From NCBI RefSeq assembly GCF_055900595.2, contig NZ_CM148325.1: a stretch of DNA of 64,000 bases. One strand, written 5' to 3'. The notes under the pieces were generated by a model. That model did not search any database. It was not told the origin of the DNA and saw nothing but the letters and a program-made list of their open reading frames with translations. Positions 1,042 through 58,922 of the stretch are shown here, piece after piece; position 1 is the stretch's first letter; every line of letters begins with the position of its first letter. The translations under genes were made by a program, and so were the position numbers.

Positions 1042-1647
1042 TTATGCGCCTGCGGCAATCAGCAACTGAGCAATCTCTTCAAAGCCCCGTTCCCGCGCCA
1101 GTTCCAGCGGCGTTTTGCCATATTTGTCGGTCAGATGCGGGCTGGCACCGTGCTCCAGCAATAACTGGACAATCGCCTGCTGTTTAATCCCGCCATCGTT
1201 AAGCACAATCGCTTCCAGTAGCGGCGTCCAGCCAACATGGTTGGTCTGGTTAACGTTAATATCCGTATGCGCCAAAAGCTCTTTTACAATACTTAAATGG
1301 CCTTTTTCACAGGCAGGCGTCAGGCCGACACCGCCGAAACGGGTTACACAATTAAGGTCTGGTTTAGCCGGTAAAATAATTCGTAGTAGCGTTAAATCAC
1401 CGTTCAGGCAACTCATTAAAAAAGGATTTAAACAGGTCTGGTCTTGTTTATTAATATCCGCACCGGCATCAATTAACGCCTGAACGCAAGCATATTGCTG
1501 ATATAAACTTGCCAGCGTAATTGCCGTTTTCCCCTGGCGATCGCAGGTATTTATATCTACCCCCAGAGCAAGGCAGGTTTTTACTTTATCGATATCACCC
1601 TGTTGTGCAGCCAATAAATAATCGGCAGGTAGATTTTTTATACTCAT
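1042..1647 (-). CDS. yahD: Ankyrin-repeat protein YahD
   Basis: ORF translation has repeated ankyrin motifs (GADIN, TPL..A, LLEHGA); likely start MSIKNLPADYLLAAQQGD gives 201 aa. Confidence 0.8.
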   Translation of the reverse strand: MSIKNLPADYLLAAQQGDIDKVKTCLALGVDINTCDRQGKTAITLASLYQQYACVQALIDAGADINKQDQTCLNPFLMSCLNGDLTLLRIILPAKPDLNCVTRFGGVGLTPACEKGHLSIVKELLAHTDINVNQTNHVGWTPLLEAIVLNDGGIKQQAIVQLLLEHGASPHLTDKYGKTPLELARERGFEEIAQLLIAAGA

Positions 1648-20072: not shown

Positions 20073-23000
20073 TTATTTCATCGCCTCCTCGCCCGTTGCC
20101 GTATTGGCCTCCACCGCGGTAATGGTCACCGTCACTGGCTTCATTTCGTACCCGCCATAGGTCAGGGCGTTAAATGTGAACGTATAGACACCAGGCTTGC
20201 TGGTACTAAATGTACGCGTGATTTTTCCGCTCACGAAATGGTCATTTTTCGACGGCAGGAACTGATAATCCTTCTCCGTCACCCCTTCCGGCGTCTGAAT
20301 GTCGACCCACATATTCCCGCCAACGGGGTTATTTGCCGACATCAGGGTCACCTCCAGCTTCGCAGTCGATTTCCCATCCGCCACCAGCGAAGGCACATTA
20401 GATGATGCGGTGAGCTGCGCGTTTTTATCATCCGCGACGAATTTAGCTTCGGCGGTTTTCGTTGATACCTGACCGTTGTTCTGACTCACTTGCGCCGTGA
20501 GTGTATATGTCGCCGCAACAGTAGTGGTGGCGGTGAAAATAGCCTGCCCTTGCTCATTCGTTGTCGTAGTGCCATTCGGTTCCAGGTTTAACGAAGCCGG
20601 GCTGGCGGTCAGCGTCACTTCGCTATCTTTCACCAAATTCTTATTGGCATCAGTCACCGTAACTTTATACGTTTGTTTGGCTTTGCCGTCCGCCAGTGCA
20701 TAGTTGCCAATCACCTCAATACTGGAGACGGTTGCGGTAGCCTTATCGGCTACAAACGTTATAGTCTGCGTATTCGAAGGCTGGCTATTCCCTGCCGATG
20801 CCGTGATCTCATACGTTCCGGCAGTCACTGAAACCACCTGCAACTCTGCTTTCCCCTCATCGTTGGCTTTCACCCAGACATTATCGCCAGTAAGCGGCTT
20901 GACACCCCGGGGCAGATTAAATGTCACCAGAGTTCCTGGAACAGGGTTACCGTTTTTATCCTCAACGGTCGCCGTCAGCGTAAAGGCATCTTTGCCGTTT
21001 GCCACTTTTTGAACGGCGGTGTCTACCTGCAGGTTTGCCTGACCGGTGCTGGCATCCGCGTTGAATTTCACCGTGACCGTCTTCTGAGAGTTTTTCACCG
21101 CGGCCGCGATTTCAAGTTCCCCTGCAACGGTTGATATCAACTCAATATCCGCTTTACCTGCCGCATTGGTTGTTACTGTATTCCCCGTCTTGCTAGTCAC
21201 ACCCTGCGGTAAAGTCAGCGTAACTTCTTGCCCCTGCAACGGGTTACCATAGCTGTCCACGACGGTCAGGGTTACCTGGTTAGCAGACTGTCCATTTGCC
21301 AGCTGGTTATCAACCTTCACCGTCATATCACGAATCTCAGCCTGAGAAGCGTCACCTGCAACATTCAGCACCAGTGGCTGAGCAACGGCATTTTGGCCGT
21401 TCACGCGTGGCATGACAGACAACTGACCTGCAGCCGATCCCAGCGTTAAGGTCGCCACGTAGACCCCATTACTTTGCTCTGTCCAGCTTCCTGCTGAAGG
21501 TCGCTCTGATCCCGTGCTGGCGGCACCGCTAAACACGGGTGCATCTGGCTTCAGCCCGGTGACCGGGTTCCCGTACGCATCCTTCACGGTGAAGGTGAGT
21601 TCCGTCGTCGTTTTAACCGTTGGAGTCTTATTGTCCGCAACAAGCGTAGAGTTCGCTGATGACATCTCCCCGGCGATGACCGTCAACTGCGCGGCTTCGG
21701 TGGCTGCTGGCTGGCCGTTGAAGAGCGGCATGACACGAAGCTCGCCCGTCTTTCCGCCTGTGGTCAACGTAGCAACATAGGAACCGTCACCTTTTTCGGT
21801 CCAACTGGAAACGGTCGCCCCTTCAGAGGCGGTCCCCGTCAAACTTGCCGACAACGAAAGACCACTGATAGCGTTGCCATGCGCATCTTTCGCCACCAGC
21901 GTCACGGTTGTGCTTTCGCCTGCTTTTACGCGATCTGCGGCTACAGACACTGTCGACTGGCCTGAAGATAACGCATCAGCCACCACGGTCACTTTAGCCG
22001 CATTCTCTGCCGCATCCTGTCCATTTAGCTTCGGCATAACTTCTAATTCACCCGCCGTAGAGCCGAGAGTAATCTGCGCAGTCCACGTCCCATCACCATT
22101 ATTTGTCCAGCCAGATGCCGTAGAACCAGCAGCTGCTGCGCCCGATAATGACGGTGCATCCGGATTGAGGCCTGTTACAGGGTTGTCATTGGCATCTTTT
22201 GCCGTCCAGATTGCCGTAAGCGTACCGCCGACCACCGGTTTATCAGGATTCAGGGTGATGGACGAATGTGCTGCATCAAGCGGCCCAGCAACGAACTTCA
22301 GCGTTTGTTGTAATGTACCCAGCTGATACTGCTCGCTGAAGGCACGCACAACAACGTTTCCGGCACGGGTCGAAGAAACCGTGGCGCTGTAAACCCCTGG
22401 TTTTATTTCCGAAATGGCACCAACGGTAACACCATTAGTGTCTTGCGGAACAAGTCGCAGGCGGCTGGCTTCTCCCGTCACCGGATTACCCTCGGAGTCC
22501 ACCGCAGTCAGCGTCAGCGTGTAGGCTTGCTGACCATCAGCAACCACGTCACCTGACGGCTCGTTAGCGCTCAGGGTGGAGTTTGCCACATCCATCATCG
22601 TGGCCCGCAGTTCTGCAGTGACGGTTTTGCTCATGCCATCAACGCTAACAGTAATCGTTGCCTCACCTGACTGCGTTCCGGTCGTAAAGACAGACTGGTA
22701 CACCCCTGCTTCAGTTTCGGTGAACTCACCCAGTGTGGGTTTTGCCTGTGATTTAGTGGCCTTCAGGGTACGAGTCACAATATTTCCAGCCGGTTTGAAG
22801 GATAGTTCAGTCTTGATCTGATCTTTCATGCCCGTGACTGGCTGGCCCTCTGCGTCGCGCAGAGACAGCACCAGCGGCTTTTGCTCATTACCGTTAGCAA
22901 GCATTTGAATACGGCTCTGACCGTCAAGCGTTAACGCAGTGCGATCGGCGCTCATACCAGCTCCGGTAATAACCACTTCTGTCTGCACACGTTTCGAGGC

Positions 23001-24326
23001 ATTGCCTTTGTTATCGTAGGCAACTGCTGAAATCGCATAATAATTGTCTTTGCCTGGACGGTAAGCCGGGAGCGTTACTTGCCACTGACTCCCCTGCCCG
23101 GTAATTTTGCCACCTTCAGCCAGTAATGATGGTGCTTCCCACTGCACATTTTTCAGACCGTGAGTCGCTTTGCTGACCACCAGCCCCAGGGAAACAGTCT
23201 GCCCGCCCTTGCCTTCAATACGCTCAGGCAGAGCAATACGGATCACTTCTGATTTGCGGTACTCAAGAATGATATTGTTATTACGCTCAACCAGGTCATA
23301 GCGGCTGCCTGCCAGCATTCGACGCTCGCGAATGCTGTCTGTATCGAGTTGTTTTTCCAGAGGTTCGCCAATTCGGTAGTTAACTTCCAGGCCAAAGCGA
23401 GTGTCATTCTCACCACTCTTGCCCTGCTTATGCCCGGCGCTCAGTGTCAGAAGAGGCACTGGTGTATAGGTTACCTCGGCAGAAATAGCATGCGGGTCTT
23501 TCTGGCGTTTATCTTTACCAAACAGCCCGACTTCATCGCCATAATACTGCTCATACATCAGGCTTGCGCCAAGCTGCGGCCAGGCAGGTAAATAGCCCTC
23601 AGCACGAATATCCCAGCCATTCGCCGGGCGTTCCTGATAATCCTCAACATCCGGTGATTTTTTCCAGCCAGAAGCCCGGATATAACCATTGGCGCTCAGT
23701 TTCAAATAATCACGCCAGTATTCCGCACCAACACCAATGCGGGTATGACTACGGGATAAATCATGATCGATAAAAGTATTCACCCCCGCCATCCAGTCAT
23801 TTCCTGAAAAATGACGCCAGCCAAAACCAATATTTGACTGAGTACGATCGTCGGTACGATGTATTGCCCCCTGAGTGAACAACATATTTGTCGGCGTGTC
23901 ATAAATCGGATAAAGCATTTCCAGCGAAGAATCCTTCAGCGAGAAATCTTTATCGACATTCAGTTTGACGCGCGCTGTACCATATTTCCCGAGCCACTCC
24001 TGTATTTCCTGGTTAGCTTTAGCGGTGGCCATTCCGGTAATAAAATTACGTGTCGCATCGCTATCTGGCTGACTGCTTAAAAATGTCCCGGCATTCGCGG
24101 CAAGCGACGCGACATTTTTCTCCACGTTATTATCAGCAGTTACCGTAGTATTTTCCATGCTCAATCGTGGCTGAACCGCATGCTGCGCATGTGCCGCCAT
24201 TACTGGGGTAAAAGTGACTGCGAGTGGGAAAAGAACCTGAACAGAGATATTTGCCCACGCCACGCAGCGGGCCAGAACTGAATAACGAAATCGTGGTTGT
24301 TTATGACCTGTTTTATAACGTGACAT
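20073..24326 (-). CDS. eaeH: Intimin/invasin-like outer-membrane adhesin, full length (EaeH/FdeC type)
   Basis: 1417-aa uninterrupted ORF: N-terminal beta-barrel-like region then many ~90-aa Ig-like repeats (T/V/A-rich). Confidence 0.85.
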   Translation of the reverse strand: MSRYKTGHKQPRFRYSVLARCVAWANISVQVLFPLAVTFTPVMAAHAQHAVQPRLSMENTTVTADNNVEKNVASLAANAGTFLSSQPDSDATRNFITGMATAKANQEIQEWLGKYGTARVKLNVDKDFSLKDSSLEMLYPIYDTPTNMLFTQGAIHRTDDRTQSNIGFGWRHFSGNDWMAGVNTFIDHDLSRSHTRIGVGAEYWRDYLKLSANGYIRASGWKKSPDVEDYQERPANGWDIRAEGYLPAWPQLGASLMYEQYYGDEVGLFGKDKRQKDPHAISAEVTYTPVPLLTLSAGHKQGKSGENDTRFGLEVNYRIGEPLEKQLDTDSIRERRMLAGSRYDLVERNNNIILEYRKSEVIRIALPERIEGKGGQTVSLGLVVSKATHGLKNVQWEAPSLLAEGGKITGQGSQWQVTLPAYRPGKDNYYAISAVAYDNKGNASKRVQTEVVITGAGMSADRTALTLDGQSRIQMLANGNEQKPLVLSLRDAEGQPVTGMKDQIKTELSFKPAGNIVTRTLKATKSQAKPTLGEFTETEAGVYQSVFTTGTQSGEATITVSVDGMSKTVTAELRATMMDVANSTLSANEPSGDVVADGQQAYTLTLTAVDSEGNPVTGEASRLRLVPQDTNGVTVGAISEIKPGVYSATVSSTRAGNVVVRAFSEQYQLGTLQQTLKFVAGPLDAAHSSITLNPDKPVVGGTLTAIWTAKDANDNPVTGLNPDAPSLSGAAAAGSTASGWTNNGDGTWTAQITLGSTAGELEVMPKLNGQDAAENAAKVTVVADALSSGQSTVSVAADRVKAGESTTVTLVAKDAHGNAISGLSLSASLTGTASEGATVSSWTEKGDGSYVATLTTGGKTGELRVMPLFNGQPAATEAAQLTVIAGEMSSANSTLVADNKTPTVKTTTELTFTVKDAYGNPVTGLKPDAPVFSGAASTGSERPSAGSWTEQSNGVYVATLTLGSAAGQLSVMPRVNGQNAVAQPLVLNVAGDASQAEIRDMTVKVDNQLANGQSANQVTLTVVDSYGNPLQGQEVTLTLPQGVTSKTGNTVTTNAAGKADIELISTVAGELEIAAAVKNSQKTVTVKFNADASTGQANLQVDTAVQKVANGKDAFTLTATVEDKNGNPVPGTLVTFNLPRGVKPLTGDNVWVKANDEGKAELQVVSVTAGTYEITASAGNSQPSNTQTITFVADKATATVSSIEVIGNYALADGKAKQTYKVTVTDANKNLVKDSEVTLTASPASLNLEPNGTTTTNEQGQAIFTATTTVAATYTLTAQVSQNNGQVSTKTAEAKFVADDKNAQLTASSNVPSLVADGKSTAKLEVTLMSANNPVGGNMWVDIQTPEGVTEKDYQFLPSKNDHFVSGKITRTFSTSKPGVYTFTFNALTYGGYEMKPVTVTITAVEANTATGEEAMK

Positions 24327-24603
24327 TGAGATAATTTCCTGATGAACGAATTAACGAACATAGGCAGACACAAATAATGGCGTCTGCTTGTCAGAAAAAC
24401 CGGGATTTCCCGGTTTCCTTTTCCGCAGAAAAGGAAATACCTTTATGTAAGAAAGTACACCGCCACCTAATATATCCAGTGCCTGTAGCCACTCATCAGG
24501 TGGTTGGGCGCGGGATTATATTTTTATTTATGGGTGAAAATTTAGCTTTTTGTGCAAGTCATTAAATAGATACCTATGTTATATTTCTTACTCTGCGGAC
24601 AGT

Positions 24604-24619
24604 GAATAATTCATTATTC
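24604..24619. promoter_or_regulatory. AT-rich palindromic operator-like site (GAATAAT-TC-ATTATTC) between divergent eaeH and AKR genes
   Basis: Perfect 7-bp inverted repeat with 2-bp spacer plus a third TGAATAAT half-site 6 bp downstream; resembles Fur-type hexamer repeats. Regulator unknown. Confidence 0.3.
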
Positions 24620-24875
24620 AGAGTGAATAATAATGACCTGCTTTTAATTTACCACGATTGGAAATACGTCGAAGTAGGTATATACCCCAGGATAAACCGA
24701 TATATTTTTTATGGATATTCATTTTCCTTCGTCGGACTGTAAATTCCGGGGATATCGAACTTGCACGACTAATCTCAACCCTCAAACAGATTTATGAATT
24801 TTGTTCATAACCCCTGACAAATCCTGCCGTCTAATCGAGCTTTTCCCTTTACGTTATGCTTCTCATGAACGATAA

Positions 24876-27751
<2,876 letters not shown>

Positions 27752-27883
27752 TTAACCACATTATTAGTAACAATGATAATCTGGCTGTATCGAAAATAAT
27801 TCTAAACTTTCAGGAGATTTATTATGAATAAACGTATCCTCACGATTGCGTCATTCTTCTTACCGATATTCTGACACACATCA

Positions 27884-28810
27884 TTAACTTTCTATTTTTA
27901 CTCTTTTCTCCACCATAAAATCAATAAAAGCACGAACTTTAGAGGGCATTCTCACCCGTGATGAAACATATATATAAAATCCAGAAAATGAAACGGCCCA
28001 ATCCTCAAGAATCGGCTGTAACTTGCCCGCATTGATATGTTCAGCGATTGCAAAATCCAGATGTTGAATGATACCCGTTCCATTCAGCGCCATTCGTATC
28101 ATGCTTTCGTCATCATTAGAAATATACTTACCTGACACCTCTATTTCGAACTCTTCATTACCCCCCACAACATTCGAAAACTCCCATGCTGAGAGTGCAC
28201 CGCTACTTTTATGCCGCAACCGAAGACAATTATGGTTACTCAATTCCTGAGGAGTTTCAGGAATACCGTGTTCTTTTAAATAATCTGGCGATGCCACAGT
28301 AACCAGTTTTATAAGCGGAGAAACAGGAACGGCAGTCATATGCTCATCCAGTCCTTGCTCAAGACGTATGCCCACATCACAGCCGTCCGCAATAATGTTA
28401 GATAAACCGTCATCCATAATGAGTTCTATCTTTGTTTTGGGGTAACGAGTAAGAAACTCGCCAATATGAGGCTCAATAAGCATCCTTGCTGCAACACGGG
28501 AGGAATTTATTCTCAACAGTCCTGTAGGTTCAAGTTGGGTATCACCGACATCTTTCAACGCATCATCAATTTGCCCCAAAGCCGACACCAGCACTTCATA
28601 CAGATGCTGTCCTTCCTCAGTAAGCGACATATTGCGGGTCGTACGGTATATCAGCTTGGTGTTAAGACGTTCCTCAAGAGATTTTAAATTCTGGGACAAT
28701 GCGGCCCGCGTAATACCCATTTCAGAGGCTGCCCTGGAAAAACTGCCGGCACGAACAATCAGCGCAAACCAGGCAAGAGAAGGCAAAATTGAAGGCTCTA
28801 TTTTCATCAT
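27884..28810 (-). CDS. LysR-family transcriptional regulator
   Basis: Start taken at MMKIEPSILPSLAWFALIVRAGSFSRAA; LysR HTH and C-terminal effector domain. Confidence 0.8.
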   Translation of the reverse strand: MMKIEPSILPSLAWFALIVRAGSFSRAASEMGITRAALSQNLKSLEERLNTKLIYRTTRNMSLTEEGQHLYEVLVSALGQIDDALKDVGDTQLEPTGLLRINSSRVAARMLIEPHIGEFLTRYPKTKIELIMDDGLSNIIADGCDVGIRLEQGLDEHMTAVPVSPLIKLVTVASPDYLKEHGIPETPQELSNHNCLRLRHKSSGALSAWEFSNVVGGNEEFEIEVSGKYISNDDESMIRMALNGTGIIQHLDFAIAEHINAGKLQPILEDWAVSFSGFYIYVSSRVRMPSKVRAFIDFMVEKRVKIES

Positions 28811-28966
28811 TGTAAACCTTAACTTAACACTGTGATAGATATTAGACCATTGATGATAACCAATACAAGTCATACTATTACGCCGTTCGCGATATGAACA
28901 CGAATGCCAGTTGCGGATAATAGAAATGATATTTAAATCTGTTTAGGCAAATCCCTGGAGCTTGAA

Positions 28967-29887
28967 ATGAAAACGGTTTCGATAAAACACACTTACTGGG
29001 ATATAGCTGCTGATATCTATTTCCCTGACGATTTTAATAGTGAAAAAAAGTATCCTGCCATTATCAGTGCCCATCCAATTGGAAGCTGCAAAGAACAGAC
29101 ATCGGGTAGTGTGTATGGTGCCGCCCTGGCAAAAGCTGGCTTTATCGTCATTGCTTTTGATGCCAGTTTTCAGGGAAGCAGCGGTGGAGAACCGCGTTAT
29201 CTGGAAGATCCAACAATGCGAGTAAAAGACTTCAGCATTGTCGTTGATTACCTTACCACCTTACCTTACGTTGATGCCGGGCGTATTGGTGTACTGGGTA
29301 TTTGTGGTGGAGGTGGATATGCCATTAATGCCGCAATGACAGAACGTCGGATTAAAGCCATTGGTACTGTCACGGGTGCAAACTACGGGCGTCTTATGCG
29401 TGAGGGATTTACAGCGTTTAATCCTATCGGAGCACTCGAAGCAATGGCGCAACAAAGAACAGACGAAGCTAACGGCGCAAAACTTCGCGTAGATGATTTG
29501 CTCCCTTCTTCTCCGGAAGCAGCTCTTGAAGCGGGATTAACAGAAATAGACCTTTTTGAAGCAACAGAATATTATCGTTCACCACGAGGCTGTGCGCCTA
29601 ATGGGGTAAATCGTTCGCTATTTTCACATCAGACTGTTGCCGTGGGCTGGGATGCTTTTCATCTTGCAGAAGTCCTGTTAACTCAACCACTAATGGTTGT
29701 AGTGGGCGATAGAGTGGGCGCTTTTGGTGCCTATCGTGACGGCTGCGAAATTATTGGTCGTGCAGCCTCAAAACATAAAGAGTTGGTCGTGGTTGAAGGT
29801 TATTCACATTACGACCTGTATGATAAGCCAGAACCTGTGAAACAGGCGCTCGATAAATTAATTCCTTTTTATAAAACACATTTGTAA
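28967..29887 (+). CDS. Alpha/beta hydrolase, dienelactone-hydrolase-like (Cys nucleophile)
   Basis: 306 aa; nucleophile elbow GICGGGGYA typical of DLH-family hydrolases; divergent from the LysR gene. Confidence 0.7.
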   Translation: MKTVSIKHTYWDIAADIYFPDDFNSEKKYPAIISAHPIGSCKEQTSGSVYGAALAKAGFIVIAFDASFQGSSGGEPRYLEDPTMRVKDFSIVVDYLTTLPYVDAGRIGVLGICGGGGYAINAAMTERRIKAIGTVTGANYGRLMREGFTAFNPIGALEAMAQQRTDEANGAKLRVDDLLPSSPEAALEAGLTEIDLFEATEYYRSPRGCAPNGVNRSLFSHQTVAVGWDAFHLAEVLLTQPLMVVVGDRVGAFGAYRDGCEIIGRAASKHKELVVVEGYSHYDLYDKPEPVKQALDKLIPFYKTHL

Positions 29888-30131
29888 TAATCTTACAGGG
29901 AGATTCCTTATCTCCCTGACATTTATCCTTTATTGACTACACAACAATAATGAAATTACTCAAAAAGAAATTTCATTAAAGAAACAAAAAAGCAGTAACT
30001 CAATCATTAAGATTATTAGAAACCCTTTGAAGGGATTATAAATAAAGCCAGAAATCTTGGTTCCAAAGCTGGCAACAACTAACCAGTTAAAACATACGCA
30101 TCAAAATCAGATAAACATTTGAGGTATTGTT

Positions 30132-31274
30132 ATGACAAATAAACACCCATCATTGTTTTCTCCTTTTATGCTGACAGAAAAAATAAAGCTACGTAATCGT
30201 ATCGTTATGGCTCCTATGACAACCTGGTCAGCTAATCCTGATGGAACCATCTCTGAGCAAGAACTCGAATTTTATAAACGTCGCTCACAAAATGTTGGTT
30301 TAGTAATAACAGGATGCACCTATGTCACGCCAAGCGGCATTGGGTTTACTCATGAATTTGCCGCGTATGACGACCGTTTCATTAACAGCCTTGAAAAGTT
30401 AGCTGCTGCAGCCAAAAGTGGCGGTGCTCCGGCTATTTTGCAGATTTTCCACGCCGGTAATAAAGCCATCCCGGAGCTTGTGCCAAATTACGATGTTATT
30501 AGTGCCAGCGCATCAAGCGTAAAATCTGGTGACTTTATGAAGAGAGTGGTACAAAGCAGGGAAATGACTGAAAACGAAATTCAGGAAACCATTAGAGCAT
30601 TCGGAGATGTCACAAAAAGGGCGATTAAAGCAGGTTTTGATGGCGTTGAACTTCATGGTGCGCACGGATTCCTTCTGCAGAATTTCTTCTCCCCTCTATT
30701 TAACCAGCGTAATGACCGATGGGGAGGAGATCTTGAAGGACGTATGCGCTTCCCGCTGGCCGTATTACAGGAAGTAAAAAATGTAGTCTATGAATATGCG
30801 ACAAAGCCCTTTGCCATCGGTTACAGAATATCTCCTGAAGAATCTGTAACAGGGGGTCTGCGGATAGAGGATACTTATAAACTCCTTGATCGGCTCATTT
30901 CATCCGGTATTTCGTATATACATACCTCGCTGGTCAGTATTAACGATAGCTACCCTGTTGAGTCGCCAAATGGCCCCCGAACTATTGAATTGATTTTAGA
31001 TCATATTGCAGGCAGAGTGCCGGTAATCGCCGCAGGTAAAATACGCACACCGTCTCAGGCTCAAGAAGCAATTTCCGCTGGCCTGCCACTTGTTGCAATC
31101 GGTAAAGGGCTGGTAATAAATCCAGAATGGGTGACTTTAGCTGAATCAGGTAGAAGTCATGAAATTCAAACAGCCCTTAATCCACAACGCGTTCCTGAAT
31201 TAACCATTCCGGATAAACTATGGGATCAAATTCAGGCATCGAAAGGAACTGGCTGGTTTCCGTTAATGGATTAA
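30132..31274 (+). CDS. NADH:flavin oxidoreductase (Old Yellow Enzyme family)
   Basis: 380 aa; OYE motifs (MAPMTTW, LHGAHGFLLQNFFSP...NxRxDxWGG). Confidence 0.8.
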   Translation: MTNKHPSLFSPFMLTEKIKLRNRIVMAPMTTWSANPDGTISEQELEFYKRRSQNVGLVITGCTYVTPSGIGFTHEFAAYDDRFINSLEKLAAAAKSGGAPAILQIFHAGNKAIPELVPNYDVISASASSVKSGDFMKRVVQSREMTENEIQETIRAFGDVTKRAIKAGFDGVELHGAHGFLLQNFFSPLFNQRNDRWGGDLEGRMRFPLAVLQEVKNVVYEYATKPFAIGYRISPEESVTGGLRIEDTYKLLDRLISSGISYIHTSLVSINDSYPVESPNGPRTIELILDHIAGRVPVIAAGKIRTPSQAQEAISAGLPLVAIGKGLVINPEWVTLAESGRSHEIQTALNPQRVPELTIPDKLWDQIQASKGTGWFPLMD

Positions 31275-32697: not shown

Positions 32698-33134
32698 TAA
32701 TTTCCTGGGGATATATTCTTCCTGTTCATTTAAAGCCAACTGCCTGACGTTTCTCTCCGAATATTCCATTATATTAATGTTGATTTGTTGACCAGCTTCG
32801 CCCCTGTATGCTGGTATCAACTCTCTTTTAGACTGAACAAGCCACTCCGCCCCCTCCCTTTGCGGAGCAGCCTGCATTTACACTCAAACTGTTAAGATGA
32901 TAAATGTGGTAAATCTGTTGGTACTAACATAAAAACGTTTACGCCACAGGAACAGCCTGATCCACCAGTAACCCCATCGCCGACGTTCGAGTGCCAGTTA
33001 GAGTAACGCGCACAGATGACTGCACGCAGTGCCCTGTCAAAGAGGCCATCGTTCCTGTGACAGCTGGCAGCCTTCGTTTAACTTCACTTAATTTGGCTCT
33101 TGGGGGGCTTACCGAACAGGGTAATGACTCCAAC

Positions 33135-33638
33135 TTATTGATAGTGTTTTATGTTCAGATAATGCCCGATGACTTTGTCATGCAGCTCCACCGATTTTGA
33201 GAACGACAGCGACTTCCGTCCCAGCCGTGCCAGGTGCTGCCTCAGATTCAGGTTATGCCGCTCAATTCGCTGCGTATATCGCTTGCTGATTACGTGCAGC
33301 TTTCCCTTCAGGCGGGATTCATACAGCGGCCAGCCATCCGTCATCCATATCACCACGTCAAAGGGTGACAGCAGGCTCATAAGACGCCCCAGCGTCGCCA
33401 TAGTGCGTTCACCGAATACGTGCGCAACAACCGTCTTCCGGAGCCTGTCATACGCGTAAAACAGCCAGCGCTGGCGCGATTTAGCCCCGACATAGCCCCA
33501 CTGTTCGTCCATTTCCGCGCAGACGATGACGTCACTGCCCGGCTGTATGCGCGAGGTTACCGACTGCGGCCTGAGTTTTTTAAGTGACGTAAAATCGTGT
33601 TGAGGCCAACGCCCATAATGCGGGCAGTTGCCCGGCAT
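33135..33638 (-). CDS. insB: IS1 transposase InsB (expressed as InsAB' by frameshift)
   Basis: 167 aa, [64 protein letters not shown]... Confidence 0.95.
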
Positions 33639-33832
33639 CCAACGCCATTCATGGCCATATCAATGATTTTCTGGTGCGTACCGGGTTGAGAAGCGGTGTA
33701 AGTGAACTGCAGTTGCCATGTTTTACGGCAGTGAGAGCAGAGATAGCGCTGATGTCCGGCGGTGCTTTTGCCGTTACGCACCACCCCGTCAGTAGCTGAA
33801 CAGGAGGGACAGCTGATAGAAACAGAAGCCAC
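33557..33832 (-). CDS. insA: IS1 protein InsA
   Basis: 91 aa, [43 protein letters not shown]... (zinc finger + HTH). Confidence 0.95.
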
Positions 33833-33949
33833 TGGAGCACCTCAAAAACACCATCATACACTAAATCAGTAAGTTGGCAGCATCACCAAAACCTGCAAAA
33901 ACTCTTAGATCTTTTACAGAGCGAAGATGGATTCAGTAGCAATAAGAAG

Positions 33950-36949
33950 TTGATTGGCAAATTTCGTTTGTTACCGAAAAAATTAACCACAAAGAAAAAA
34001 CATGAATCCCAAAATGGACACGTCCACTTTTCTAATCCTAAACGAGCAGCCGACCATTTATTTAATAATTTTGATCTGATACCAGAGTTTCGTATTATTG
34101 GTGACTTCCCGGTTGATAGTCACATTATCTCTGCACTATGGATTAACATGGTCGGGCATAAATTTGATGCCAGCTTAGATAACTGTTGCTATGGCGCGCG
34201 GCTAAAGCGTATTCGTAATGATGAATTATTTAGCAATGAGCAGGATAATCCATTCCATATCAGTGCAGTGGGTTCTTTTAGCCCCTACTTCCAGCCCTAC
34301 CAAAAATGGCGTGGTGATGGCTTAAAAGCTATACGTGACGAGTTGGAAAAAGATCGTGACATTATCGCCGCCTCACTGGATTTAAAAAGTTACTATCATT
34401 TTATTGATCCACTGGCTATAACCTCTGATGATCTCTATAACACACTAAACATAAAACTGACTGAGGATGAAAAAGCGTTTACTGCACAGTTAGCAGTATT
34501 CTTAAAGCACTGGTCTGACGGCGCAGCGGCATTTGGAAAGAAAATAGCGTACAAAACACCTGTTATTAATGGTGGTCTGGTCATTGGATTAACAGCCAGT
34601 CGGATCATTTCAAATATATTGCTACACCATTGGGATAAATTAGTCATTGAAAAACTATCACCAATTCACTACGGTCGTTATGTCGATGATATGTTCCTTG
34701 TAATACGCGATACAGGGAAAATTACTAATAATCACGAATTTATGTTATTGCTGCAAGATAGGCTTGGCAATGATTGCGTTTATTTGAAAAACGAGCAAAA
34801 ACAAATATGGCAAATACAGCAGGGCGAGCATTTCCAGGGTAAGACCACCATCCAGTTACAATCCGATAAGCAAAAACTTTTCGTGCTTCAAGGGAGGGCT
34901 GGAATAGACCTGCTCGACAGTATCGAAAAGGAGATCTACGAGCTTTCTAGTGAACACCGCTTGATGCCTTCACCGGATCAACTGGAACACTCAACCGCAG
35001 CTAAAGTCCTTTCCGCTGCCGGTAGTGTAGGTGAAAATGCCGATACTCTGCGCCGTGCAGATGGATTAACCATTCGTCGTTTGGGCTGGTCACTGCAATT
35101 ACGCTACGTTGAAACACTGGCACGAGATCTGCCTCCAAGTGAATGGAAAGAACAGCGGGAAGAGTTTTATCAGTTTGCCTACAACCATATTCTTAGGGCT
35201 GATAATCTATTTGCACATTTTAGTTATCTGCCAAGGCTGCTTGGCTTTGCTATCAGTATGAATGAATGGCAGCACGCGGAAACAATTGTACTTAAAGCTT
35301 ACGAATCCATCAACCTGTTGGCATCGGTGATTACTTCAGGTAAGGAAGTGAATATAAATGGTTGCAAAACTCGAGCAGTAAATGATCTTTGGCGCTGTAT
35401 AAAAGGCACATTAAGCTGGCTATTTGTTGATGCAGCGACACGATATTACAGTCCTGACAGATTATTTCTTGATAAACGTTCAAAGAAAGAAGAGTGCCTT
35501 GCGGATACATTTTTTAATCATATTTCACAAAGTCTGACGAATCTAAAGGATTTACTGGATCTTCGCTTTGATTCAGCAGATTTTTATTTAAAAGCGCCAT
35601 TGGTAGCTCGAGCTGATTTAGCAAAGGAACCTTATAAACAGATCGTAAAGAGTCAGTCGGCAGAAAAACTTGTTAATCAGCGTGATAGTAAAAAAGAAGT
35701 TAAAATACTGAAATTAATGAGCGACTCATCGCTTATTGATATTGACGTTATTAAGCTATTTTTGAAATCAACCAAGAATACCCGACTGGAAAAAGTGGCT
35801 AAAGGAAATCGTAAGAACGAAAGTTACCTACCTTACATTTTCCCTACACGTCCTTTAACACCCGCTGAAATATCAGAACTGGCCCCCGAATGTGTTGGAT
35901 TACCCTCCACATCCGACAAAAAACCAGATGAGAGACCGTCCACCATTTGGGCAAAATATACTCAAGCATTACGCGGAGTATGGATCAAACCGACGTTGCT
36001 AGCATCGGAGCAGGACTCAGATGAAGCGACAAAAAAAGCTCGGCCTAAGAAATTCATTCATATTGGCACAGACAGGAAACATAAAGTTGTCGTTGCGCTA
36101 ACCAGCATTAAAACAGAGGAGGACGACTGGGCTAAAATGGCCTGCAATAAATCTAACTTGTCCCGTTCAAGGTACCAGCGGATTTCTGAACTGGTTAATG
36201 CAACATTGAAACTATCTCCTAAACCTGATTATGTTTTATTCCCTGAGCTTTCAATCCCGTTACGCTGGGTTAACAGTATTGCTGATCGTTTGAGTTCGGC
36301 GGGTATCAGTCTAATTGCGGGAACAGAATACCGCCACTTAGACGATAATCAACTGAAGAGTGAGGCCGTACTTGTCCTTTCAGATAACAGACTCGGCTAT
36401 CCAGCGAGTGTCAAAATATGGCAACCCAAGCTGGAACCCGCCGTAGGTGAAGATGAGGCATTATTTTCAACTTATGGTAAGTCTTGGGACTCGACACTTA
36501 ATGTTAAACAACGTAAGCCGGTATATATTCATCATGGCGTCAATTTTGGCGTTATGATTTGCTCTGAACTCCAGAATAGTAAAGCGAGGATCCGTTTTCA
36601 GGGCGCACTCGATGCATTAATGGTATTGAGCTGGAATAAAGATCTAGATACGTTTGCATCGTTGATTGAATCAGCAGCGCTGGATATTCATGCCTATACT
36701 ATTTTAGTGAATAACCGAAAATACGGCGATAGTCGCGTACGTTCCCCGGCAAAAGAACCCTTTATGCGTGATATTGCTCGTGTGAAGGGCGGTGATAATG
36801 ACTTTGTGGTCGCTGCAACGCTGGATATCGACTCGTTAAGGGCATTTCAGAGCAGGGCAAAACGCTGGCCTAAAGGCGGCGATAAATTCAAACCGTTACC
36901 TGAAGGATTCCAGTTGGCAAAGAACCGCAAAAAGCTACCGCCAAAATAA
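33950..36949 (+). CDS. Reverse transcriptase with C-terminal nitrilase (C-N hydrolase) domain; defence-associated RT, DRT type 1 / UG1-like; possibly 5'-truncated by IS1
   Basis: RT motifs in order: A (ASLDLKSYYHFID), B (GGLVIGLTASRIISNILL), C (YGRYVDDMFLV). C-terminus has a nitrilase-type Glu/Cys pattern (YVLFPELSIP ... GVMICSELQ). ORF begins at TTG 63 bp after IS1 and the frame is open into IS1. Confidence 0.8.
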   Translation: MIGKFRLLPKKLTTKKKHESQNGHVHFSNPKRAADHLFNNFDLIPEFRIIGDFPVDSHIISALWINMVGHKFDASLDNCCYGARLKRIRNDELFSNEQDNPFHISAVGSFSPYFQPYQKWRGDGLKAIRDELEKDRDIIAASLDLKSYYHFIDPLAITSDDLYNTLNIKLTEDEKAFTAQLAVFLKHWSDGAAAFGKKIAYKTPVINGGLVIGLTASRIISNILLHHWDKLVIEKLSPIHYGRYVDDMFLVIRDTGKITNNHEFMLLLQDRLGNDCVYLKNEQKQIWQIQQGEHFQGKTTIQLQSDKQKLFVLQGRAGIDLLDSIEKEIYELSSEHRLMPSPDQLEHSTAAKVLSAAGSVGENADTLRRADGLTIRRLGWSLQLRYVETLARDLPPSEWKEQREEFYQFAYNHILRADNLFAHFSYLPRLLGFAISMNEWQHAETIVLKAYESINLLASVITSGKEVNINGCKTRAVNDLWRCIKGTLSWLFVDAATRYYSPDRLFLDKRSKKEECLADTFFNHISQSLTNLKDLLDLRFDSADFYLKAPLVARADLAKEPYKQIVKSQSAEKLVNQRDSKKEVKILKLMSDSSLIDIDVIKLFLKSTKNTRLEKVAKGNRKNESYLPYIFPTRPLTPAEISELAPECVGLPSTSDKKPDERPSTIWAKYTQALRGVWIKPTLLASEQDSDEATKKARPKKFIHIGTDRKHKVVVALTSIKTEEDDWAKMACNKSNLSRSRYQRISELVNATLKLSPKPDYVLFPELSIPLRWVNSIADRLSSAGISLIAGTEYRHLDDNQLKSEAVLVLSDNRLGYPASVKIWQPKLEPAVGEDEALFSTYGKSWDSTLNVKQRKPVYIHHGVNFGVMICSELQNSKARIRFQGALDALMVLSWNKDLDTFASLIESAALDIHAYTILVNNRKYGDSRVRSPAKEPFMRDIARVKGGDNDFVVAATLDIDSLRAFQSRAKRWPKGGDKFKPLPEGFQLAKNRKKLPPK

Positions 36950-43671: not shown

Positions 43672-46398
43672 CTATTCCCATTCGCTAACATCTTTCATGC
43701 CACTGAGGGTAGCTACAATCCCGGCCCTTGTCAGTTTCACGAATTCTTCAGCCCCAACGGCATCACGAATTGCTTTCATGGCAATTTTATTGGCCGAAAA
43801 TCGTTTCTCTGCTGCGGCGATCGCTGCTGGTGATGCCCCTGCGCGCACTGCTTTTGTAGCTTCCTGAACGGCTTTCTCTATCGCATATCGACCACTTCTT
43901 GTCGCCCCAATCTTAGCCACAGCATTTCTTAGCGCGCCACCAGCAACCAAACCACTAATCGAACCAATTACACCACCGCCAAAGCCTCCAGCGATCGCAC
44001 CTGACTGTTGAACACCGTTCATAATCACGCCGACGATCTTTGGAAGGCCTGAATCGAGCGTTTTGAGAGCCTCAGTTGTTCTTCCCGTGCGCTCTACGTA
44101 TCGCTGCGGTCTGGTACTGGCTTTAGCGAGTACACCGAACTCTTTCATCATTCTACCGAGATCTGGCGCATGACGACTGATGGCGTTTACATTCTGCTGG
44201 GTCATGAGCTTGGCAAAATACTGGATACCTGACTCTTCACCGATTCCTCCCTTCTCTCCCTGCGCCACAGCATGCTGAAGAATAGATGCTATTGCAGGTT
44301 GGCGTTCTGCTTCCGGCAGCGCGGAGATAAGACGGTGAAAAGCTCCCGTTCCAGTGTTTGCGGATGCCTTAAGCGTATCGGCACCTTTTCTTACCATAGC
44401 GTCTGATGCGAGATCTCGACCAAAAACAGATTCGGCATTTTGTTTGGCGATAATGTAACTTTTAGAGAGATCGTTAGCTTTCTGCCATTCTGTGAGGAAG
44501 TTTCCTTTTTCAGCCATGATGCGCATGTCATCAGTGATAGCTCTGCGCATTTCTCCGGCAATCCGGGCGGCATTGGCCTTACCTGCCCGGGTGTTTGCTT
44601 GTTCAGCATCAGCAAACTTAGCACGCCATGCCTTCATCCCGTCGAAGGTTATGCCGCCACCTTGGTTGTTGGCAGCCTGAAACTGTTTCATCTCCGGGCT
44701 GAGTGGAACATTGGCTGCTTTTTCTGCTTGGACGACAGCCATTCCATTACTCATTTTCATCCTTTCGCGTGGCATCGTGCTTCGCAGTTCTGCCCATGCC
44801 ATATTCTCTGCTGTTTTCATATCACTGAGGCTCGCGATGATGCGCTCTTTAATTGCTGCGCTTTTTTCTGATGCGCTTCCAGACTCAGCACCGAAATCAG
44901 ACAACTGCTTATTCAACTTTGAGGATATTTCATTGAAGGCCGTAAGGTGAGCATCCTGAACATTCCCAGGAGTTGATGCCAGAACACCTTCTGCTTGGGC
45001 AATTCCACGACTACCTGAGCGCATTCCAGGCGTCAGGGTGTTGATATTAATACCAGTGATTTTCGCCGCCTTAGCGACATCATCTCTGACGTTTGATGCC
45101 TGCGATGCGATATGCTCTCGGCCTACGGCAGAACGCGCTGCTTTCGATACATCATTGGCGGTTTCCAGAGTATTTGCTGCCCCTAACACATGGCCTGATT
45201 GATTTGTATTACTCCGCAATACATCTCGCATTACGTCACTGGCTGTCTGTCCGCTCTTTATTAAAGCGCGTGCTCCTAGCGATCCTGCTAGGCCAATACC
45301 TGTCTCTTTTGCTAGGTCTTCTGGGCTGATCTGCCCGTTCTTTTGGGCGTTCACCAATGTACCTGGCAGGTTTTCTGCCAACATACTAGCCACCTTTGTG
45401 GCCGCACGTTCAGCACGTGGAGCGTTGGCAACTGAAGAAGCTGCGGTAGCTGCCTTTCCTGCACCTAATCCTGTAATAAGGTAAGGTGCTAGCTGCTCAC
45501 CAGCCTGCGCGTATGGATCTGTAGGTTGGTCTACTGGGCGAAAGACAGGTGATATGGGCGTGTATGTGCCATCACCCACACCAAGCTTCTGAGCTGCCCA
45601 TGCTCCGGCTGATTGCGCCGCATTGACTACCCCCACGCCTGCGTCCATTACATCAAACGGTATATTAGCAATCCCTCTGGCCATCTGCTCTGGCGCAGCT
45701 TTCAGTCCTGGCGAAAGATATTCCATCTCAGGATTAAGGTTAGACTTGGCTACTTGCTGCTGCGGTTCCCCGGCATTTTCATCGGCGAGAAACTGAGCTC
45801 TTTTCTGCTCCCATGAACTGGCTGTTGGTAGTCCTGCTTCTATGTTCTTAAATTGCTGACGTTTTGCTTCCCATGCAGAAATATCTCCCACCTGAGAGAT
45901 TTCTTTATCAAGCTCTGAGTAGTCAGGCTGCTGAAGATTGCGATGTTGACTGGTTTGTGCAAACTGCAAGATTTCACTGTCATCAGGGATTATTCCGGCA
46001 TCTGCAAATTTACTTACGTAATTAGCCGTTTCATCTGGCAGTGTAGATTTACCGTTTCTGACGGCATTAATACGAGCATAGCCAGAATTATACCCAGCCA
46101 ATGCCATACCTATATCACCAAATCGCTTCATTCCTTTATTGAGATGGTTTGCTGCGATATCCATTTGCTTTTCAAATGGCAGTGAGCGCGGATCTGTTCC
46201 ACGATAACCAGCATCACTCATTACTGAGGGCATCAGTTGAGCAAATCCTCTAGCTCCTTTCGGTGACTCGGCACTTCCGTTACCACTAGATTCATTGCCA
46301 ACTAATGTTTCCATCGTCCCTGATGGGAAACCATATTTTTCATCGAGATGACGGGAATAGGCTTTCTGTTTTTCTGTCAGTTGTGCCATCATTGCCAT
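43672..46398 (-). CDS. Large protein with N-terminal lytic transglycosylase (SLT) domain; podovirus gp16-like internal virion/ejection protein
   Basis: 908 aa; SLT motifs (GARGFAQLMPSV ... ALAGYNSGYARI) then long helical region and C-terminal hydrophobic segment. Confidence 0.65.
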   Translation of the reverse strand: MAMMAQLTEKQKAYSRHLDEKYGFPSGTMETLVGNESSGNGSAESPKGARGFAQLMPSVMSDAGYRGTDPRSLPFEKQMDIAANHLNKGMKRFGDIGMALAGYNSGYARINAVRNGKSTLPDETANYVSKFADAGIIPDDSEILQFAQTSQHRNLQQPDYSELDKEISQVGDISAWEAKRQQFKNIEAGLPTASSWEQKRAQFLADENAGEPQQQVAKSNLNPEMEYLSPGLKAAPEQMARGIANIPFDVMDAGVGVVNAAQSAGAWAAQKLGVGDGTYTPISPVFRPVDQPTDPYAQAGEQLAPYLITGLGAGKAATAASSVANAPRAERAATKVASMLAENLPGTLVNAQKNGQISPEDLAKETGIGLAGSLGARALIKSGQTASDVMRDVLRSNTNQSGHVLGAANTLETANDVSKAARSAVGREHIASQASNVRDDVAKAAKITGININTLTPGMRSGSRGIAQAEGVLASTPGNVQDAHLTAFNEISSKLNKQLSDFGAESGSASEKSAAIKERIIASLSDMKTAENMAWAELRSTMPRERMKMSNGMAVVQAEKAANVPLSPEMKQFQAANNQGGGITFDGMKAWRAKFADAEQANTRAGKANAARIAGEMRRAITDDMRIMAEKGNFLTEWQKANDLSKSYIIAKQNAESVFGRDLASDAMVRKGADTLKASANTGTGAFHRLISALPEAERQPAIASILQHAVAQGEKGGIGEESGIQYFAKLMTQQNVNAISRHAPDLGRMMKEFGVLAKASTRPQRYVERTGRTTEALKTLDSGLPKIVGVIMNGVQQSGAIAGGFGGGVIGSISGLVAGGALRNAVAKIGATRSGRYAIEKAVQEATKAVRAGASPAAIAAAEKRFSANKIAMKAIRDAVGAEEFVKLTRAGIVATLSGMKDVSEWE

Positions 46399-47708
46399 CC
46401 CTTAAGTTTTGCCTGATAGTAACTTTCCGGCAGATAGCCATGTGCGGTCACATAATCCTTAACCAGTGAAGGATCCTGCAACAGCATTTTGGTATCAGTT
46501 TCTTCGTCCTTAGATTTGGTTACAGGAATACCGAGCCCGGCAATCTGTCGTTTCTGCATTCGAATAATTACGTCCTGCGCTTTATTCAACTCTCGCAAAA
46601 ATGCCTCATTGCTGGTTGCTGACTTAATGCCATTTTGAGATTGCATAAGGGCAGCCCTTTCCCCTTCGGTTGGGTTAGAGCCAAAAGTCCCTTTGAGGCT
46701 AGGCAGAATAACCTTTAGGTTGTATTCATCAGCTTTGGCGCGTAGGCTTCGTGTGTCTTCTGCTACATCAGGAAGGAATCCAAACCCCAGCGTCAGGGGG
46801 TTATAGTTCTGCGAGCGGGTAACGGCCGAAGGATGTTTCCCTACAATTCCCGCCAGTTCATGACCCACTTCAAGCGCAGAGTTCAAGGAGTCGATGTTAC
46901 CTGCAACAGTATTAATTTTATCGTTCATCTTCTCCACTTTCGCCTGCTGTATCTTGCTCAGTTCAGCATTGAGCTTGTCTCTCTCGATGTCATTTTGAGC
47001 ACGTCCAAGTCGTGCTTTCAGAACCATTTCTCTCGTGCGTAGTTGGTTATCGGATAGGACTTTGAACTGCTCCATATCGAGACGTCGATTACCCTGTTCC
47101 GCATTAACCTGAGCATTATATGCGGATGTATCTGCGTTCTGCTGTGCAATGCTCTGCCCTTGCTGCTTCTCTTGAACACTAAAGTAACTATTTGGATCAG
47201 CATGGAGGTGGATGAGGTCAGTGATTCTGTTGAATTCCTGTGGGTCATTCTGCCAAGACTGATAAACCTCTTCAGCAGGAAGACCAAATCGCTGTAATAC
47301 TGGATTTGCCTGCTGAATGGCCTTCTGCATGGTCAGTGGATCTCCAGTTTGTGACGCAAGACGCAGATTCATGGCAGCGTCAGCGGTCTGTCGATTTTGC
47401 TCAGCATCAATGAATCCCATCTGTTTTTGAGAATCAGCCATAAACTGGGGATACTGGGCCATTAACTTCTGCACGCCAACACGATCATTATTAGCTACCG
47501 CACTACCCAACCGTGCCTGATATTCTTTTAACTGCTGGGAAATTTGCGCCTGCTGATTAATCTCAGCAACGCCTCTTAGCCCCTGTAGCGCCATTAAACC
47601 TACGTTTGGCTGCTGCTGATACTGCACAGGCTGAGGAACGGAAGAACGAGGAGCATTATCATTTTGCGGTGCCATGCTAGGCAGCCCGCCAAGTTGCCAT
47701 GTCGCCAT
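46389..47708 (-). CDS. Gln-rich coiled-coil protein (439 aa); gp15-like by size and position
   Basis: Overlaps neighbours by 1-10 bp; no enzymatic motif. Confidence 0.5.
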   Translation of the reverse strand: MATWQLGGLPSMAPQNDNAPRSSVPQPVQYQQQPNVGLMALQGLRGVAEINQQAQISQQLKEYQARLGSAVANNDRVGVQKLMAQYPQFMADSQKQMGFIDAEQNRQTADAAMNLRLASQTGDPLTMQKAIQQANPVLQRFGLPAEEVYQSWQNDPQEFNRITDLIHLHADPNSYFSVQEKQQGQSIAQQNADTSAYNAQVNAEQGNRRLDMEQFKVLSDNQLRTREMVLKARLGRAQNDIERDKLNAELSKIQQAKVEKMNDKINTVAGNIDSLNSALEVGHELAGIVGKHPSAVTRSQNYNPLTLGFGFLPDVAEDTRSLRAKADEYNLKVILPSLKGTFGSNPTEGERAALMQSQNGIKSATSNEAFLRELNKAQDVIIRMQKRQIAGLGIPVTKSKDEETDTKMLLQDPSLVKDYVTAHGYLPESYYQAKLKGWQ

Positions 47709-48385
47709 TAGAATCCAAGCCCCCCAACAAGACCAATAAGCCCACCACCAATAGCGCCGGCCGCAGTTCCTATTCCAGGAACAACGGAACCAAGTTGCGC
47801 ACCCGCTAAAGCGCCTGATGCTGCCCCACCAATACCACGCGCAAGACTGGATGGCTGCTGCGCCTGACCTGCACGAATAGCGCCAAGCCCCTGCAAGAGT
47901 TGTCCGGTATTATTGGCGTAGTTTTGCCCTGCCGTTGCCTGCCCTGATGCCGCATTCATCCCGACATTTAGCAGGTTTCCATAATTTTGCATTTGCCCAC
48001 TGAGCCAATTGTTATAAAGCATGGGCGCAATGGAAGATAACTGGTTACTGGTAGCTGTTGAGCCAAGCCCCCCGGTAGCTTCTGCTGAGACAAGGTTCTG
48101 ATAACGGGCCTGATCTGCCTGTGTTTTATATAAACCAGAACCAAAGAAATCATTCGCGGCTTTATTCTGCCCTTCCAGAGTCATCAGTCCTTGTAGTTGT
48201 TGTAAAGCAGGCAATCCGACTTCTGCATACGGCTTGAGATTATTCATCACCGTATTCCACTGCTCGCGCTGCAAATCAATTGCCTGCTGCTGGGCCTTCG
48301 CCTGAGCTTTAGAGGCACCACCATCACCGCCTTTTTCGTATACGGCACGATTGAGATGTTTATGAGCTATGTGGGTAATTAACAT
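47708..48385 (-). CDS. Protein with C-terminal glycine-zipper membrane segment (225 aa); gp14-like
   Basis: C-terminus GIGGAASGALAGAQLGSVVPGIGTAAGAIGGGLIGLVGGLGF. Confidence 0.5.
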   Translation of the reverse strand: MLITHIAHKHLNRAVYEKGGDGGASKAQAKAQQQAIDLQREQWNTVMNNLKPYAEVGLPALQQLQGLMTLEGQNKAANDFFGSGLYKTQADQARYQNLVSAEATGGLGSTATSNQLSSIAPMLYNNWLSGQMQNYGNLLNVGMNAASGQATAGQNYANNTGQLLQGLGAIRAGQAQQPSSLARGIGGAASGALAGAQLGSVVPGIGTAAGAIGGGLIGLVGGLGF

Positions 48386-48840
48386 TCGCTGAATTCCTTA
48401 TATTGTTGCCGAGTTAACTGATAAAGCGTTACGCCGACGGGTTTACCACATCTGATATAAGCATCATCAAGGTGACCAACACGGGTAGCGCCAAGCAAAC
48501 GGATAATTGCCCGTCCGTATTTGGTGGTGTCAGGAACCATGGTAATGCTGTTAAGGAATGGTGAGTTTTCGAGAAGCCATTTGCAGAATAATCGATGCCC
48601 TTGCAGTGCATATTCACCACGGAATCCGGGGTCGTACACCGCATGGCATTCAACAACGCTATGCCAGAAGTTACGCACTTCATGAACGCCAGCCAGCACT
48701 AATCCTTCGTAGATGCCGAGATATACCGCATCAGGCTTGATGTAGTACGTGTGCCCCGGCTCAACAATATTTTCGGTATTGCCTGGCTCGTTAAGAAAGG
48801 CCTGTAATCGCACAGGGTTATCAATAAATTTTAGTTCCAT
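48379..48840 (-). CDS. Hypothetical protein (153 aa); first gene of the four-gene module (gp13-like position)
   Basis: ORF with coupled start; no recognisable motif. Confidence 0.5.
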   Translation of the reverse strand: MELKFIDNPVRLQAFLNEPGNTENIVEPGHTYYIKPDAVYLGIYEGLVLAGVHEVRNFWHSVVECHAVYDPGFRGEYALQGHRLFCKWLLENSPFLNSITMVPDTTKYGRAIIRLLGATRVGHLDDAYIRCGKPVGVTLYQLTRQQYKEFSEC

Positions 48841-58846: not shown

Positions 58847-58922
58847 TGGTGCCGATAATAGGAGTCGAACCTACGACCTTCGCATTACGAATGCGCTGCT
58901 CTACCAACTGAGCTATATCGGC
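58847..58922 (-). tRNA. thrW: tRNA-Thr (anticodon CGU), thrW; integration site
   Basis: 76-nt minus-strand sequence GCCGATATAGCTCAGTTGGTAGAGCAGCGCATTCGTAATGCG...GGCACCA folds as a cloverleaf with CGT anticodon and CCA end. Confidence 0.9.

Follow-up and report, generated by a model that had tools for sequence, protein, structure and literature searches.

The DNA analysed here is a 64,000-nucleotide stretch of contig NZ_CM148325.1 (NCBI RefSeq assembly GCF_055900595.2), hereafter the window, and our subject is the adhesin gene fdeC (also named eaeH) that it carries in the rcl-ykg region of the Escherichia coli chromosome. In the open reading frame (ORF) listing of the window, the gene appears as a single unbroken frame on the minus strand, with an ATG start, 1417 codons and a stop, and its translation contains one stop only, at its end. 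An initial annotation of this DNA had described an uninterrupted intimin-like adhesin gene at this place; its coordinates and the length of 1417 amino acids were exact, and the strand, which it did not state, is minus. GC content is 0.50-0.56 in most blocks inside fdeC, and 0.42 in the block at 24000-24999, which holds the 5' end of the gene and the upstream intergenic region.

The domain architecture of the protein was established by several searches (Table 1). Read by eye from the translation, the N-terminus has a basic N-region, a hydrophobic stretch (CVAWANISVQVLFPLAVTFTPVMA) and an AHA motif ahead of Q47, and codons 1-46 likely encode a Sec signal peptide. In Pfam, residues 76-350 match the inverse autotransporter barrel domain IAT_beta (PF11924) over profile positions 3-279 of 279, with E 3.9e-109 and 365 bits where the cut-off is 22.3, and a PDB sequence search matches the solved barrels of invasin (4e1t, E 2.6e-82) and intimin (4e1s, E 6.4e-71) to residues 113-357 and the intimin D00-D0 structure (6tqd) to residues 358-466. 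Further along, Pfam gives nine Invasin_D3 and five Big_1 stretches, and a repeat profile, seeded with the domains of the crystallised FdeC fragment 4E9L and iterated on the sequence of this protein itself, resolves nine consecutive immunoglobulin (Ig)-like units of about 100 residues that span 457-1415. Together with the D00-like domain at 358-456, these units make ten Ig-like domains, which equals the published number for FdeC, a protein described with 10 Big domains (PMC4943183). The beta-barrel N-terminus and long Ig-like stalk claimed from the sequence are thus borne out by the Pfam and PDB matches and the iterated profile, and a 4.25-kb open frame with these domain scores is no chance ORF.

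Both ends of the protein were also scanned for domains of related adhesins. No LysM or other Pfam domain scored above its cut-off in residues 1-116, and Pfam searches of the whole protein (E<=0.01) and, more permissively, of residues 1-116 and 1297-1417 (E<=1) showed neither LysM nor a C-type lectin domain. When the C-terminal piece was scanned with Pfam, its last domain scored as Invasin_D3/Big_1 only. The last two domains, modelled with AlphaFold (mean predicted local distance difference test score, pLDDT, of 80), came out all-beta, and their best fold matches were Ig-like domains from intimin, InvD and invasin rather than lectin folds.

The orthology of the gene is equally clear. The 7-kb region around fdeC is 100% identical to that of E. 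coli E400634, in which the gene is annotated "fdeC: inverse autotransporter adhesin FdeC" (WP_032302495.1), and it is the annotation of such ~100%-identical genomes that bears out the proposed FdeC/EaeH identity. In a collection of 5426 complete E. coli genomes, the allele occurs at essentially 100% DNA identity in six (four at full score, two marginally lower), and the closest allele after those six has 98.4% DNA identity. Any fdeC match was present in 5078 of the 5426 genomes, and at least 80% of the gene, which we call near-full length, in 4585 (~85%); a near-full-length fdeC is the normal state in E. coli, and K-12 is the exception. At the protein level, identity is 91.6-96.4% to five annotated FdeC alleles of 1415-1418 residues (from EC261, Z563 (labelled O157:H7), 22AR0434, clone D i2, and E07), which align end to end with single-residue gaps. 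No internal frameshift or stop was found against these five full-length alleles, as expected of the intact ORF that had been claimed. The crystallised fragment 4E9L matches residues 595-1008 (E 2.5e-247), where ~397 of 414 positions are identical and ~17 differ (~96%, counted by hand). Synteny is kept at all loci examined: a convergent ykgA-like helix-turn-helix regulator, fdeC, and divergent aldo/keto reductase genes where present, within the rcl-ykg region. FdeC of the extraintestinal pathogenic E. coli (ExPEC) strain IHE3034 (ECOK1_0290; PDB 4E9L) and EaeH of the enterotoxigenic E. coli (ETEC) strain H10407 are the same gene, with the same position, length class, barrel and ten Ig domains, and what separates the present copy from FdeC/EaeH is allelic differences only, most of them in Ig domains 7-10 and the ~17 residues at the C-terminal end.

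The protein therefore has every feature of the FdeC type, namely an IAT barrel, about ten Ig-like Big domains, neither LysM nor a lectin tip, and orthology to characterised FdeC. We conclude with high confidence that fdeC in the window is an ordinary intact copy of the chromosomal E. coli fdeC/eaeH, a type Ve (inverse autotransporter) adhesin gene. The observation made in the initial annotation is confirmed and its interpretation supported, with the refinements given below.

Table 1. Positions of fdeC, its parts and other features in the window
Feature	Position	Strand	Basis
fdeC (eaeH) coding sequence	20073..24326	-	ORF; ~100% DNA identity to annotated fdeC WP_032302495.1 of E400634 and to five other genomes
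Likely long Sec signal peptide, codons 1-46	24189..24326	-	read from translation
Beta-barrel translocator domain, residues 76-350	23277..24101	-	PF11924; 4e1t and 4e1s match residues 113-357
Passenger stalk, ten tandem Ig-like (Big_1 / Invasin_D3) domains, residues 358-1415	20082..23255	-	Pfam, repeat profile, PDB, AlphaFold tip model
Ig-like domain 1, residues ~358-456; nine others at 457-575, 577-680, 682-783, 785-885, 887-991, 995-1090, 1091-1193, 1192-1298 and 1297-1415			
Part of fdeC retained by MG1655, codons 1-292	23451..24326	-	BLAST of window against K-12 locus; K-12 annotation
3751-bp segment with IS3 in its place in K-12	19700..23450	.	BLAST of window against K-12 locus; junction sequences
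Upstream intergenic region, 564 bp, AT-rich, presumed fdeC promoter/regulatory region	24327..24890	-	divergent from aldo/keto reductase gene
Hairpin, 14-bp stem, AATAATGGCGTTGA-loop-TCAACGCCATTATT	20007..20039	.	consensus scan and sequence; pattern match only
ykgA-like AraC-type helix-turn-helix regulator, convergent neighbour	19095..19952	+	annotation of E400634 and K-12
Prophage: ejection proteins and SLT transglycosylase	43672-48840		
Prophage: Toprim/DUF927 primase	49603-52362		
Prophage: integrase	57467-58681		

The contrast with K-12 is confirmed. MG1655 retains only codons 1-292, an 876-bp 5' fragment that ends directly beside the insertion sequence IS3 and is annotated as an "inverse autotransporter beta domain-containing protein" that lacks its C-terminus; since codon 292 lies inside the barrel, the K-12 product has no complete barrel and no passenger. 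BLAST aligns window 23451-24876, which takes in codons 1-292 and the greater part of the upstream region, to K-12 at 96.4% identity overall, and this orthologous part is what the K-12 eaeH pseudogene (b0297) shares with the gene described here. The missing 3' 3.4 kb lies nowhere else in K-12, where fdeC has one match place that covers query positions 1-876 only. The segment that IS3 replaces contains codons 293-1417 (1125 codons), the spacer between fdeC and the ykgA-like gene, and the 3' end of the latter. The MG1655 locus runs rclR-rclA-rclB-rclC, a fragment of an aldo/keto reductase gene, the C-terminally truncated ykgA-like gene, IS3, the fdeC stump and ykgR. The K-12 IS3 seems to be three bases short at its right end, and 49 bp of unassigned sequence separate its left inverted repeat from the point where homology to the window stops. 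K-12 "eaeH" is thus a stump left by an IS3-associated deletion. The initial annotation had described K-12 as carrying a truncated eaeH beside an IS3 copy, which stands, with the refinement that IS3 takes the place of window 19700-23450 and is no simple insertion. Besides codons 293-1417 and part of the ykgA-like gene, a 6.3-kb stretch upstream of fdeC (window 24877-31182) is missing from K-12 as well.

A truncated fdeC is also found in BL21(DE3) (NZ_CP053602.1, 285838-287064), at 29% coverage in two pieces, unlike the IS3 event of K-12. Because the two truncations differ, laboratory lineages lost fdeC independently. Previous work described fdeC as a short N-terminal pseudogene in K-12 strains and as full length in the commensals HS and SE11, with a prevalence of 83-100% across pathotypes (Nesta et al. 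2012, PMC3324786). The gene and the K-12 contrast are therefore already known, and there is nothing new in the intactness of fdeC as such.

What FdeC does has been studied in other strains. Nesta et al. (2012) named the protein, solved the structure of a fragment, reported that FdeC binds epithelial cells as well as collagens I, III, V, and VI and that host-cell contact induces its expression, and observed aggregation when FdeC was expressed in W3110 (PMC3324786). Heinz et al. (2016) described its assembly as assisted by the translocation and assembly module (TAM) and FdeC as the prototype of the largest inverse-autotransporter subgroup (PMC4943183), and the adhesin EaeH of ETEC, which is the same gene, came to light in a subtractive hybridisation against MG1655; contact with cells activates it (PMC4309559). 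From these orthologous alleles, which are 92-96% identical, we infer how the protein encoded here is secreted, what it binds and that its expression is conditional (i.e., silent in standard culture and induced by host-cell contact). Mechanistically, the N-terminal signal peptide would carry FdeC across the inner membrane by Sec export, and residues ~76-350 would then fold into an outer-membrane beta-barrel, inserted in a manner dependent on the beta-barrel assembly machinery (BAM) and TAM. The ten Ig-like domains of the C-terminal passenger would form a rod, be threaded out via the barrel by hairpin translocation and project from the surface, where FdeC may bind host epithelial cells and collagens and promote bacterial aggregation. 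The suggestion that an intact copy means a functional adhesin can thus reasonably be inferred for this isolate from the orthologues, with the qualification that expression is described as conditional in published work.

The ratio of nonsynonymous to synonymous substitution rates (dN/dS) is 0.13-0.21 overall and 0.01-0.12 over the barrel and proximal domains, where purifying selection thus speaks for a gene that is being maintained. Three points weigh against a simple transfer of the published function to this allele. Several hundred FdeC variants differ in adhesiveness (Aleksandrowicz et al. 2024, PMC11143625), and in the avian pathogenic E. coli (APEC) strain IMT5155 loss of fdeC increased adhesion (PMC11143625), so the phenotype of the allele found here cannot be assumed. 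The distal domains of the protein differ most from characterised alleles, at 50-90% identity in 50-residue blocks. Finally, no clear sigma-70 promoter was recognised upstream of fdeC, where consensus matches were as frequent as expected from shuffled sequence.

The last of these points would also suit a gene that is intact and effectively cryptic in this isolate, i.e., never usefully expressed and with no part in adhesion: the upstream region is AT-rich and without a strong consensus promoter, FdeC expression was seen only on host-cell contact (Nesta et al., PMC3324786), and FdeC is reportedly regulated by H-NS and temperature, going by the title alone of a 2014 study by Easton et al. We consider such a cryptic gene highly unlikely, as low dN/dS over most of fdeC and retention in ~85% of genomes indicate selection for the protein, the stretch conserved in K-12 at 96.4% (window 23451-24876) takes in most of the upstream region, and, for orthologues, expression follows contact with the host and convalescent sera recognise the protein (PMC3324786, PMC4309559).

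Even less probable is that FdeC here acts as an invasin-type, integrin-binding protein that drives uptake by host cells. The Invasin_D3 repeats, the match of the barrel to 4e1t (E 2.6e-82) and matches of the invasin structure 1cwv to residues 1005-1140 speak for this reading, and Yersinia invasin and the InvD/InvE family share the barrel and Invasin_D3/Big_1 domains and the distal folds are closest to Ig domains of intimin, InvD and invasin. However, the NCBIfam model of the invasin (Inv) N-terminus scores 310.4 bits where 710 are required; the tip is a plain Ig-like domain and not a lectin-like D5; and FdeC, without the integrin-binding D4-D5 superdomain, has a much longer stalk, with ten Ig domains in the passenger compared to the extracellular D1 to D5 of invasin as numbered by Nesta et al. 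(PMC3324786). The published ligands of the orthologues are, moreover, collagens and not integrins (PMC3324786). Other named inverse autotransporters in NCBIfam also score far below their cut-offs, with matches limited to the N-terminal third.

The term intimin-like used in the initial annotation holds for architecture and fails for intimin proper. Like intimin (Eae) of enteropathogenic and enterohaemorrhagic E. coli, FdeC belongs to the type Ve secretion class, has a homologous 12-stranded barrel and linker, and carries an Ig-like (Big_1) passenger, whereas the C-type lectin-like, Tir-binding tip of intimin is not present. Intimin has a periplasmic LysM domain and far fewer Ig domains than FdeC, and is encoded in the locus of enterocyte effacement (LEE). 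A true Eae-type intimin that binds translocated Tir in an attaching-and-effacing system is effectively refuted, for although homology to intimin extends over the barrel and the first Ig domains (intimin_all, 4e1s and 6tqd matches), the NCBIfam model intimin_all reaches only 385.7 bits against a cut-off of 1400 (E 3.9e-115) and only over residues 57-468, residues 1-116 hold no LysM, no C-type lectin or Intimin_C domain is found and the last two domains are Ig-like, and fdeC is flanked by genes for a ykgA-like regulator and aldo/keto reductases instead of tir, cesT or other LEE genes. Both the intimin and the invasin readings were rejected on the NCBIfam cut-offs, the Pfam scans of the terminal pieces and the fold search of the modelled distal domains, and an FdeC-type adhesin is the identification that we retain.

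Around fdeC, the convergent ykgA-like gene is intact here and is truncated in K-12 by the same IS3 event, and the hairpin that lies between the two genes looks like a shared bidirectional terminator. The block of 6.3 kb upstream of fdeC, which is cleanly absent from K-12, carries two aldo/keto reductase genes, two LysR regulator genes, an alpha/beta hydrolase gene and a gene for an NADH-dependent flavin oxidoreductase. The hydrolase ORF (28967-29887) is open in the window and has an internal stop in E400634, which is 99.9% identical.

On the other side of the ykgA-like gene, rclA (16592-17917, plus strand) is followed by 60 bp (17918-17977) and then by a full-length aldo/keto reductase gene (17978-18847, minus strand), such that the rclA terminator hairpin runs directly into the 3' end of the reductase gene. 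The 1015 bp that hold rclB and rclC of the reactive-chlorine resistance operon in K-12 are absent from this junction. A contiguous junction without rclBC was found in only six of the 5426 complete genomes. These six seem to coincide with the small lineage that carries the fdeC allele, only one of them having been identified by name.

The annotation of E400634 was applied to window 1-33119, and beyond ~33.1 kb the window departs from that genome. At 33120-33887 lies a 768-bp IS1, flanked by TACCGAACA and AAAACCTGC and without a 9-bp target duplication, which joins the region just past ykgL to a 5'-truncated gene. Between these points E400634 has ~20.4 kb with ecpRABCDE (E. coli common pilus, ECP), ykgJ, yagU, paoABCD, genes for a major facilitator superfamily transporter, a hydrolase and a LysR regulator, and an AbiEii/AbiEi toxin-antitoxin pair. 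The IS1 junction is shared by none of the complete genomes in the collection, and the site looks like an IS1-associated deletion or rearrangement. As IS1 stands in place of the ecp segment, the strain retains FdeC and is without ECP pilus genes at their usual locus. The gene that follows (33950-36949, plus strand) is a 999-residue ORF with no Pfam match, the remainder, 5'-truncated by IS1, of a 1069-residue "hypothetical protein" that adjoins the AbiE pair and an integrase fragment in E400634.

At the right end of the window, a P22-like prophage remnant (~38150-58922) is integrated at tRNA-Thr(CGT) (58847-58922), and proA, proB and a porin gene, presumably phoE, follow the tRNA gene. The prophage remnant has its match, at 99.1% identity across 24.8 kb, in two genomes labelled O78:H51 APEC, and not in E400634.

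Returning to fdeC, it is in residues ~1050-1417 (window 20073-21180) that allelic divergence becomes block-wise. For the distal domains Ig7-Ig10, dN/dS is 0.2-0.7, with 0.4-0.7 for Ig9-Ig10 against the nearest allele examined, and the synonymous rate dS is up to 0.5-0.8 in Ig10. Compared with other alleles, identity in single blocks falls to 50-80%. Residues 1101-1150 have 96% identity to the E07 allele and 72% to the clone D i2 allele, two alleles that are 97% identical overall. This pattern suggests that distal Ig domains have recombined between fdeC allele families and that the gene is a mosaic in this part. We regard it as unlikely, if less so than the alternatives weighed above, that the mosaic, fast-evolving distal Ig domains of this rare allele confer a host-ligand specificity or antigenicity unlike that of characterised ExPEC or ETEC FdeC. 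If this were true, the altered specificity or antigenicity would bear on FdeC-based vaccines and on the adhesin repertoire of a strain without the ecp operon at its usual locus. Overall, the finding has little importance beyond annotation, and the information that it provides is only strain-level: the isolate retains, as a rare allele, an intact fdeC, the gene of a widely conserved adhesin and vaccine candidate.

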